DNA of 64,000 nt. Source: Candidatus Latescibacterota bacterium. GTDB lineage: Bacteria > Latescibacterota > UBA2968. The notes below the pieces were generated by a model that saw nothing but the letters and a program-made list of their open reading frames with translations, did no database searches and was not told the DNA's origin. A program made the translations under genes and the position numbers. This document shows positions 55,093-57,610 of the stretch, piece by piece. Numbering within the stretch: position 1 is the stretch's first letter; each line of letters opens with the position of its first letter. The stretch is from NCBI GenBank assembly GCA_038279365.1, contig JAYODI010000003.1:70616-134615 (forward strand), given 5' to 3'.

Positions 55093-55104
55093 AATGGGCC
55101 TTAT

Positions 55105-55152
55105 AAAAAGCGACCACAAAGAGCACTTTATACATTGTTCTTTGTGGTCGCT
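55105..55152 (-). terminator. intrinsic terminator after guaB
   Basis: AGCGACCACAAAGA...TCTTTGTGGTCGCT followed by a T-run on the - strand. Confidence 0.82.
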
Positions 55153-55172
55153 ATAGGATGTATCAATGAGGG

Positions 55173-56654
55173 TTAGTAGGAAGAGTCAAGACGGTAGTTG
55201 GGAGCTTCTTTGGTAATGGCAATATCGTGGGCATGGCTTTCGCGAACACCTGCCGAAGTAATTCTTACAAAACGACCATTGTTTCGCAATTCATCAATGT
55301 TGCGTGTGCCACAATATCCCATACCCGAGCGCAGACCACCCACAAGCTGATAAATGAAACCCGATATTGAGCCTTTGTAAGGTACTTGGCCTTCTATGCC
55401 TTCTGGCACCAATTTATCGGCTTCTACTTCGCCTTGAAAATAACGGTCTTTGCTGCCGCGTTGCATGGCACCTAATGATCCCATGCCGCGATAAACTTTA
55501 AATGTGCGGCCCTGGTAGATAACCGTTTCGCCAGGGCTTTCATCTGTGCCTGCAAAAAGATAACCGATCATAACAGAGTTGGCACCTGCTGCAATGGCTT
55601 TGGTGATGTCACCCGATTGGGTGATGCCGCCATCGGCAATAAGGGGAACATCGGCCCGAGATGCTACTTCGGCACAATCCATGATGGCTGTTATTTGAGG
55701 AACGCCAATGCCAGCGATGACACGTGTGGTACAAATGGCCGAAGGGCCCATGCCCACTTTGATGGCGTCGGCACCTGCCGAAATGAGGTCTTTGGCTGCG
55801 TCACCTGTTGCAATATTGCCAGCAATGACTTGGATGTCGGGGTGTTTGGTTTTAAAACGTGAAACGGCTTTTAATACCCCTTGCGAATGACCGTGTGCGG
55901 TATCAATGACAATGACATCTACACCTCGTTCTATGAGCGCGTCTGTGCGTGCTTCCGAGTCGCCACCAACGCCTACGGCTGCACCAACGCGTAAACGGCC
56001 CAAATGATCTTTGCAAGCCAAGGGGTATTGGGTTCGCTTTTCGATGTCTTTAACGGTGATAAGCCCTTTGAGCACCCCCGCTTTATCTACAACGGGTAAT
56101 TTTTCAATGCGATGCTGTTGGAGAATTTCTTGGGCTTCATCAAGCGATATGCCCAATTTGGCGGTTACCAATCCTTTGCTGGTCATCACGTCTTTAACTT
56201 GTCGGGTAACGTTTTTTTCAAATCGCAAGTCGCGGTTGGTCAAGATGCCCACCAAGCGGTTGTTGTCGTCTACAATAGGTACACCCGAGATGCGATATTT
56301 ATGCATCAAATCCAACGCTTCAGAAATATAATGCTCTGGTGAAAGGGTTACTGGATCGACAATCATGCCACTTTCAGAGCGTTTTACCTTTTCGACTTCT
56401 TCTGCCTGAACTTCTATGGGCAAGTTTTTGTGTAAAATGCCAATGCCACCTTCTTGGGCTATTGCAACCGCCAAGCGCGCCTCTGTTACGGTATCCATTG
56501 CTGCACTGACCAATGGAATATTGAGTGTGATACCACGTGTAAGACGGGTTGACAGATCGACATCCTTGGGTAAGACCTCAGATTTGTTTGGCAAGAGCAA
56601 GACATCGTTGAACGTGAGGCCTTCCTTGACCACTTTTTCTATTGAATTGTCCAT
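55173..56654 (-). CDS. guaB: IMP dehydrogenase with CBS pair
   Basis: [16 protein letters not shown], two CBS domains, DTAHG, ICTTR, YRGMGS, DRY flap, VPEGIEG; AGGAGG RBS before ATG 56654. Confidence 0.93.
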
Positions 56655-56703
56655 GTGTACTTTCCTCCTGTTTGATATTTGGGTTATGTTTGTTGTTAGA
56701 TAC

Positions 56704-56736
56704 AAAAAACCCCTTGACGCAGACGCATCAAGGGGC
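56704..56736 (-). terminator. intrinsic terminator inside the guaB 5' leader
   Basis: GCCCCTTGATGC-gtct-GCGTCAAGGGGT followed by TTTTT on the - strand, about 50 nt before the guaB start. Confidence 0.85.
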
Positions 56737-56842
56737 TCAAAGAGCTAAGCAAGCTTTTTTTGCACACCCCACCATCGTATTTTGCGTAGGGGTTGGTCGC
56801 CGCTTTCGAAAGGGCAGACCATGCGGAATCAAAAAGCACTGC
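56704..56842 (-). ncRNA. candidate cis-regulatory leader RNA (riboswitch or attenuator) of guaB
   Basis: Closing stem GCAGUGCUUUUU/AAAAAGCUUGC encloses two hairpins; terminator follows; alternative pairing with the terminator 3' arm is possible. Confidence 0.6.
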
Positions 56843-56880
56843 ATAAATATCTCTCGAAAAATATAGTTGGTAATTGAGAA

Positions 56881-56909
56881 AATATACGGGTTCCAAGCAT
56901 GTCTGTCAA
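56881..56909 (-). promoter_or_regulatory. sigma-70 promoter for the guaB leader
   Basis: TTGACA-N17-TATATT on the - strand. Confidence 0.78.
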
Positions 56910-56970
56910 TAGTGTTTATCTGGTACATATTTGTCAACTGTTTGTAACACTTACCGCATATAATTTCATG

Positions 56971-56999
56971 TTGACGGTAAAGGCGGCTCGCATTAATAT
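56971..56999 (+). promoter_or_regulatory. sigma-70-like promoter divergent from guaB
   Basis: TTGACG-N17-TAATAT. Confidence 0.55.
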
Positions 57000-57058
57000 C
57001 TATTTGTGTAACATACTATATAATGTATGCATAATTTTCTGATAGGATATGGGTTAAG

Positions 57059-57610
57059 ATGTCATTGCAGATTATTTTATTTGTGGTCTTAATTGTTGGG
57101 CCCATTTTTTTGGCTTGGTTTAAAGGCGATACCTTGCTCAACCATCTTGATGCACGCAGACGGGCTCAGCAACAACAAAAACGACAACGCAGTACGCGTG
57201 CTTTGCCTGTGCGAGAAACGGTCATGGATACGTTGTTACAGGTTGAAACACGGCGCAACGACATCGAAGGGCGTATTGGAGTGGCCTTGTCTCACTTTCG
57301 CCAAGTCACCGAAAATGGACGTGCCCTAACGGCAAATAAGGCAGCGGCTGTCATTTTGGATGAATTGGAAAGAGTGGTTTTGTCACGGGAGTCTATGTTC
57401 AATGAATATTTAGATACGGCGTGTTTACAAAGTGACACCATTGAAGTGATGACACAGGAAGTGGCTTTGTTGCGTGAGGCAACCGCAGTTGATCACTCAG
57501 CCACACCGGCTCCCACTGGCGCAGCAATGCATTTGTTGGAGACACTCAGACAAGCCGAGCAAAAGCGGGTGAAAATAGACCAGCGCTTAAATCGCTTGGG
57601 GCGTGCATAA
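57059..57610 (+). CDS. hypothetical protein with N-terminal membrane anchor and helical/coiled-coil body
   Basis: 183 aa ORF with hydrophobic N-terminus, AGGA RBS and upstream promoter. Confidence 0.7.
   Translation: MSLQIILFVVLIVGPIFLAWFKGDTLLNHLDARRRAQQQQKRQRSTRALPVRETVMDTLLQVETRRNDIEGRIGVALSHFRQVTENGRALTANKAAAVILDELERVVLSRESMFNEYLDTACLQSDTIEVMTQEVALLREATAVDHSATPAPTGAAMHLLETLRQAEQKRVKIDQRLNRLGRA

Follow-up and report, generated by a model that had tools for sequence, protein, structure and literature searches.

A conserved terminator-bearing leader upstream of guaB in Latescibacterota as a possible ribosome-dependent attenuator

The gene guaB stands at the committed step to guanine nucleotides. 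Its control is known mainly from protein repressors and promoter effects, and riboswitches are known for neighboring purine genes. In a 64,000-nt stretch of a contig from a Candidatus Latescibacterota bacterium (JAYODI010000003.1; here called the window), guaB is preceded by a structured leader, which an initial annotation made from the letters alone had described as an undescribed riboswitch-like switch or attenuator. We asked what kind of element this leader is, which of its parts are kept in relatives, and which mechanism best accounts for them. The outer parts of the locus are as follows:

56909-56881, minus strand: sigma-70-type promoter (-35 at 56909-56904; -10 at 56886-56881), agreeing with 11 of 12 consensus positions around a 17-nt spacer
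56704..56738, minus strand: intrinsic terminator, with its helix core at 56735-56710, base extension at 56738/56707, and U run at 56709-56704
55173..56669, minus strand: guaB with its ribosome-binding site (56669-56664; coding sequence 56654-55173)

This framework agrees with what had been proposed. The promoter TTGACA-N17-TATATT lies where it was annotated and is the single promoter-like site on the minus strand within 56400-57300. The predicted terminator with U-tract ahead of guaB is likewise present, with 14 pairs (7 of them G-C) across 56738-56707, a 4-nt loop, and a T run; it follows the promoter by ~170 nt and precedes the guaB ATG at 56654 by ~50 nt. The downstream gene is guaB, as named, since its product was identified as IMP dehydrogenase (TIGR01302, 641 bits against a cutoff of 481.5, E = 8.5e-193). 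On the far side of the gene, the guaB stop is directly followed by a strong hairpin and T run (window 55100-55160, minus strand). A class-V aminotransferase (cysteine-desulfurase-like) gene at 55119-53962 lies past that hairpin, and such a gene is found 3' of guaB in three of five relatives checked.

Searches against known RNA families supported the earlier view that the leader does not match the known riboswitch families. Rfam 15 gave no matches at the gathering score across the whole 64-kb window, nothing at E <= 0.1 in a permissive search of 56600-57060, and no matches at E <= 1 in 17 relatives' loci. The best subthreshold match within 56600-57060 was the PyrR binding site (RF00515, 26.8 bits versus a gathering score of 54, E = 0.12), in an alignment that rests mainly on the terminator. 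PyrR-type attenuation, of which a binding loop and architecture of its own are characteristic, is not supported by this low score. In the openly searchable literature on guaB leaders or attenuators, the IMPDH motif, and Latescibacteria riboswitches, a scope outside of which lie subscription journals and supplements, we found no description of the element.

Comparison with relatives set the terminator apart from the rest of the leader. A BLAST search with the 256-nt leader returned matches in 31 of 61 related genomes; two congeners alone matched over the full length (84% identity), and the others matched only over the 36-nt terminator (86 to 97% identity). We found guaB in 50 of the 52 other genomes of the two nearest families (the two in which it was not found are 82% and 91% complete), and all 50 carry the terminator helix ahead of guaB on the gene's own strand, with a single substitution, A-U to G-U, in one of them. 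Across 52 distinct helices, 96% of cells are paired, versus 91.7% in shuffles, and shifting the partner by ±1 to ±3 columns leaves 47 to 61% paired. One base pair occurs in four Watson-Crick types, five pairs are invariant across the 52 leaders, and two further pairs vary to G-U only, while the loop, the helix length (24 to 28 nt), and the upstream sequence are variable. Most of these helices were collected by pattern, which contributes part of the apparent invariance; it does not account for all of it, since 49 of the 50 guaB genomes match the pattern exactly. We rejected a DNA operator reading of the palindrome on the G-U pairs together with the variable arm spacing (24 to 28 nt), which do not argue against binding of the RNA.

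Elsewhere among 168 genomes of the phylum, the helix pattern produced only six unrelated-looking matches. All three genomes of the sister family have a helix homologous to this one, which shows compensatory changes and is followed by a poor U run, and before it the same G-run and UGUG box that is described below; instead of an ATG leader open reading frame (ORF), these leaders have TTG frames only, which are without a ribosome-binding run and read through the helix. Inspection by eye of 10 guaB upstream regions from six further families showed nothing alike. In the window's own genome, BLAST with the leader returned one copy, and a second pattern match there proved to be a terminator between convergent genes and not a second copy. 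A pattern scan of genomes returned at least 122 loci, at least 15 of them guaB linked, with the remainder taken as chance terminators, and a scan of metagenomes returned 102 loci, 14 of them guaB linked.

Other guaB loci in the phylum have arrangements of their own. At one locus from a distant family of the same phylum (L187, G091:C10:86450-87070), a promoter resembling that of the window, an ATG ORF of 14 codons, and a hairpin that looks like a terminator precede guaB, without sequence likeness to the window's element. At three loci from two other families (L183, L184, and L185), a tRNA-like sequence was seen by eye directly upstream of guaB. Two families of the same class gave no IMP dehydrogenase match at E <= 1e-100 (0 of 76 genomes and 0 of 13 genomes); many of these genomes are >90% complete, and the gene may be divergent or the pathway different in them.

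A self-contained promoter, a 35-codon ORF, and a terminator could also constitute an independent small gene or small RNA beside guaB, with guaB having a start site of its own. Consistent with this, several genomes of one genus have 250 to 530 nt between the terminator and guaB, and in one relative the leader and terminator look intact at a distance of ~4.3 kb from the gene (L179, G052:C1:1169600-1174200; also L007). The ~4.3-kb insert in that relative contains several transposase-like ORFs (508, 318, and 372 amino acids). However, the element is always on the guaB strand and lies directly upstream of the gene in 49 of 50 genomes, the fiftieth differing by this insertion only, and the leader peptide is poorly conserved. 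The initial annotation had pointed to a separate guaB start site downstream of 56704 as a sign of such an independent unit, and our sequence scan of the interval between terminator and guaB gave no further promoter-like site, either over the 50-nt spacer in the window or over the 260 to 530 nt of two long-spacer genomes. A promoter of the same kind at an equal distance from the helix was recovered by pattern scan in 40 of the 50 genome leaders; in the remaining 10, the fetched stretch was too short or the pattern was unmatched. Furthermore, a metatranscriptome contig corresponding to 56760-56541 with one difference (n = 1) crosses the terminator into guaB, a weak hint of read-through, since DNA can occur in such libraries. 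RNA-library contigs leave 56771-57155 without coverage, which is uninformative in either direction. Given these observations, we regard an independent transcription unit as highly unlikely.

Within the leader, the initial annotation described a closing stem around two hairpins, followed by the terminator and a competing antiterminator. The corresponding features are as follows:

56749..56842, minus strand: closing helix (56842-56831 with 56759-56749), in which the G of the leader ATG and codons 2 to 4 of the leader ORF pair with codons 29 to 32
56795..56820, minus strand: predicted inner hairpin over basic-residue codons
56767..56792, minus strand: predicted inner hairpin whose 5' arm is rich in C and whose 3' arm is rich in G

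The RNA from 56875 to 56655 folds at -66.2 kcal/mol (z = -3.56), none of 200 dinucleotide shuffles folds as well, and the closing stem and both inner hairpins were reproduced in the minimum-energy and centroid folds. Riboswitches often control purine genes, and those of the purine family (guanine/adenine, 2'-dG, xanthine, ZTP, PRPP, and ppGpp) likewise consist of a closing stem, two hairpins, and a terminator. The leader could thus be a metabolite riboswitch, whose three-way junction would bind a guanine-related ligand and favor the terminator. Unlike those families, the guaB leader gives no covariance-model match, in the window or at the 17 relatives' loci, and has no conserved junction or loop nucleotides.

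Riboswitch aptamer cores persist over far larger distances than those compared here. In the guaB leaders, by contrast, an analysis with MAFFT and RNAalifold of 21 leaders from nine genera recovered the terminator alone, left the junction region unaligned, and gave no junction or loop nucleotides conserved across genera. Among 24 representative leaders, the 118 nt before the helix fold with z <= -2 in only 3 and with z above 0 in 6. Compensatory changes within genera were found at 2 of 38 and 2 of 33 predicted pairs. In the closing helix of three congeners, one pair appears as G-U, C-G, and U-G (read by eye), and the equivalent of this helix in the largest genus shows one-sided changes only. 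As judged by eye, hairpins unlike in sequence occupy the position of 56795-56820 in several other genera, and hairpins of a C run and a G run comparable to 56767-56792 occur in other genera; cross-genus statistical support for the 56795-56820 hairpin is absent.

The antiterminator fared in a similar way. The pairing of 56794-56783 with the terminator 3' arm exists in the window, where it comprises 12 pairs with a 2-nt bulge at -16.4 kcal/mol (the terminator itself reaches -23.4 kcal/mol), but it decays within the genus, to 5 and 7 pairs at -9.5 and -11.3 kcal/mol in two congeners. Folds of the RNA as it stands before the 3' arm is transcribed identified no common partner for the terminator 5' arm in 16 leaders. 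The region is, moreover, an open frame with a start signal. Altogether, these results make a metabolite riboswitch improbable. What stands of the proposed switch or attenuator is a conserved, cis-acting guaB leader with an intrinsic terminator, kept as a helix in 50 of 50 genomes; its ligand-binding part is unsupported, and the three-way junction proposed as the aptamer is not kept between genera. A signal related to guanine nucleotides, as first suggested, would be plausible for such a leader.

The leader is filled by a 35-codon ORF that was absent from the initial annotation:

56737..56844, minus strand: leader ORF of 35 codons plus a TGA at 56739-56737, the stop lying one base before the first C of the helix core
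56851..56855, minus strand: Shine-Dalgarno-like purine run, 6 nt before the leader ATG

We queried 51 distinct leaders with a recognizable promoter, drawn from the genomes and the metagenome scan, for ORFs of at least 20 codons that start after the promoter and end between 25 nt before and 10 nt after the helix start. Such an ORF with an ATG start was found in 44 of the 51 leaders, against a mean of 0.26 per leader in dinucleotide shuffles, a comparison that does not amount to a probability because the sequences are related. With GTG and TTG starts allowed, the count rises to 48 of 51. The ORF recurs in ~11 of 14 lineages, among leaders that are no longer alignable, and in most relatives the leader ATG is preceded at the same position by a purine-rich run. 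Read by eye, the stop codon falls within 5 nt of the first helix base in 32 of the 44 ORFs, 9 nt before the helix in 3, and 19 to 20 nt before it in 9, all from one genus, such that 35 of 44 stop at most 9 nt before the helix or inside it. In four lineages, a TGA within the helix 5' arm itself serves as the stop. Differences in ORF length are in-frame, with 30, 32, and 33 codons in one genus and 27, 31, and 33 in another.

Signs of selection on the leader peptide are mixed, and its sequence is weakly constrained. Changes at codon positions 1, 2, and 3 number 6, 3, and 15 among three congeners and 14, 9, and 12 or 26, 29, and 31 in two large genera. A second frame of the same leader stretch is also mostly stop-free, and two genomes of one genus appear to use different ORF frames. 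No codon run is consistent across lineages; Pro, Arg/Lys, and Cys codons are frequent, at positions that vary. Two or more consecutive prolines were counted by eye in 36 of the 44 leader peptides, the window's own peptide being without them, and this shared motif may be a by-product of RNA pairing, since Pro and Gly codons coincide with the C-rich and G-rich hairpin arms.

Two individual loci depart from the usual layout. In one (L028, G022:C1:1105679-1108714), the stop of the leader ORF is lost, and the frame continues for 51 codons through the terminator to an end that overlaps the guaB start codon. In the other (L169, G048:C1:2255633-2256856), the 5' arm and ~45 nt before the helix are tandemly duplicated, and the ORF layout is disturbed. 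We also considered that the leader might sense cysteine, since Cys codons are frequent in it and a class-V aminotransferase gene follows guaB. This idea was dropped because that gene stands behind guaB in three of five relatives but not in the largest genus, and because a strong terminator separates the two genes in the window.

A conserved, translated-looking ORF that ends at a terminator points to a ribosome-dependent mechanism. In these leaders, an ORF with start signals lies between the promoter and an intrinsic terminator, and in 35 of 44 cases it ends at or through that terminator, which is the arrangement of the coupling type of attenuator. Our best explanation is that the element is a ribosome-dependent transcription attenuator of guaB, of the pyrBI/pyrE kind, and we give this reading about an even chance of being correct. 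From the anatomy and its conservation we infer translation of the leader, coupling of ribosome and polymerase, and the signal to which they respond. Transcription would start ~30 nt before the short leader ORF. By default, the leader would fold, the terminator would form, and the transcript would stop ahead of guaB. A ribosome following close behind the polymerase would instead reach the stop codon at the foot of the terminator helix, where it would cover or unwind the 5' arm; the helix could then not close, and the polymerase would read into guaB. Expression of guaB would in this way be set by the tightness of coupling between translation and transcription of the leader.

The E. coli leaders of pyrBI (pyrL) and of rph-pyrE likewise place a short frame upstream of an intrinsic terminator before a nucleotide biosynthesis gene. 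The polymerase pauses in a UTP-sensitive manner at pyrBI, and the pyrE attenuator begins a few bases past the end of the rph frame. At both, a close ribosome blocks the terminator hairpin and coupling depends on nucleotide-dependent polymerase pausing, and we propose the same for guaB. The two systems also differ. Since guaB serves purine (GMP) synthesis, GTP would take the place that UTP has in pyrBI and pyrE, and the candidate pause element is a G run with a UGUG box, as opposed to a U-rich tract. The guaB leader frame mostly stops before the helix or in its 5' arm, whereas the pyr frame runs through. Furthermore, there is no sequence relation between them, and the guaB leader comes from an uncultured phylum.

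Published experiments in E. coli are consistent with a stop codon at this position acting on a terminator. According to an excerpt of PMC4824070, a stop codon 5 bp before the tR2 terminator cut termination from ~90% to <10%, an effect seen only when the upstream frame was translated. The same excerpt states that a ribosome protects ~10 nt past the A site and that hairpin folding needs 10 to 15 free nucleotides. Similarly, an excerpt of PMC5021804 describes the pyr leader terminator as inhibited by an advancing ribosome, and reports that a polyproline stall before the pyrL terminator leads to more termination when EF-P is missing.

The guaB leader also contains a sequence at which the polymerase might wait:

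56763..56773, minus strand: G-run and UGUG box, a candidate site of RNA polymerase pausing, with the G at 56763 as the next base to be added

Over the 50 nt that precede the helix, 46 of 52 distinct leaders contain a match to G(-10)..U G Y G(+1), versus 12.4 expected from shuffles, for a motif that was chosen post hoc and in sequences that are related. The conserved parts of the leader are this box, the promoter, the start signals and arrangement of the ORF, the closing helix with the pair changes given above, and the terminator helix. At pauses of the form G(-10) Y(-1) G(+1), an excerpt of PMC9291695 reports, the polymerase waits before adding G, and the pause is shorter at saturating GTP. 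We suggest that the G-run and UGUG box may be such a pause site awaiting G. At low GTP, the pause at the box would be prolonged, allowing the ribosome to catch up and guaB to be expressed; at high GTP, the polymerase would outrun the ribosome and terminate. The leader would then be a kinetic GTP sensor and a purine counterpart of the pyrBI attenuator. We put forward this sub-step only tentatively and consider it somewhat unlikely.

Amino acid attenuators offer a second comparison. The leaders trpL, hisL, leuL, thrL, and pheL likewise combine a promoter, a leader ORF with its ribosome-binding site, and an intrinsic terminator before the structural gene, together with a pause site to which the candidate box of the guaB leader would correspond, and the hisL pause is described in an excerpt of PMC9291695 as synchronizing translation with transcription. 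The guaB leader lacks a run of cognate amino acid codons, as guaB makes no amino acid; unlike attenuators of the trpL/hisL kind, it has no conserved antiterminator hairpin, and its stop codon abuts the terminator, whereas theirs lies far upstream. A classical amino acid attenuator was therefore rejected on the lack of both a regulatory codon run and a conserved antiterminator hairpin. The mgtCBR and mgtA leaders of Salmonella, which likewise contain short ORFs, encode proline-rich leader peptides and show ATP-dependent coupling. Translation of these short ORFs decides between alternative transcript fates, as set out in an excerpt of PMC3641672. They act largely via alternative stem-loops, and mgtA via Rho, whereas the guaB leader has an intrinsic terminator directly at the stop codon; the genes and the lineage are unrelated.

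Three observations sit poorly with the coupling model. The invariant core of the helix is unexplained by it, the sister family has no ATG leader ORF even though helix and box are retained, and in the nine leaders of one genus whose stop lies 19 to 20 nt before the helix, a terminating ribosome should hardly block the helix. Because the coupling model leaves the invariant core unexplained, we retain the alternative that a regulatory protein binds the helix as RNA, stabilizing or melting it, with the leader ORF being secondary; control would then resemble that of attenuators by PyrR, TRAP, or LicT-type proteins. Five invariant pairs and two that vary only to G-U, amid a variable loop, length, and upstream sequence, would fit such a binding site, as would the compensatory changes by which the sister family preserves the helix despite its poor U run and missing ATG ORF. 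The best of the weak Rfam matches was, moreover, to a protein binding site, that of PyrR, but this match is far under the gathering score and mostly covers the terminator. Against this reading, the helix has no conserved loop or bulge, the kind of feature that proteins usually recognize; each genome has a single site, and we found no candidate protein. We therefore consider control by a helix-binding protein unlikely. Alternatively, within the coupling model, the invariant helix may add a second layer, for example through a factor or ribosome contact that reads it.

In its best reading, the new aspect of this element is that a known kind of ribosome-dependent attenuation is here applied to a purine gene. 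The element offers a compact test case, since it spans ~260 nt and occurs at one site per genome in an uncultured phylum. It also advises caution in annotation, as a leader that folds well ahead of a purine gene need not be a riboswitch. If the coupling model is correct, it would extend the logic of the pyrimidine genes pyrBI and pyrE to the GTP branch of nucleotide synthesis, and the supply of GTP would be linked directly to how fast the polymerase moves relative to the ribosome.
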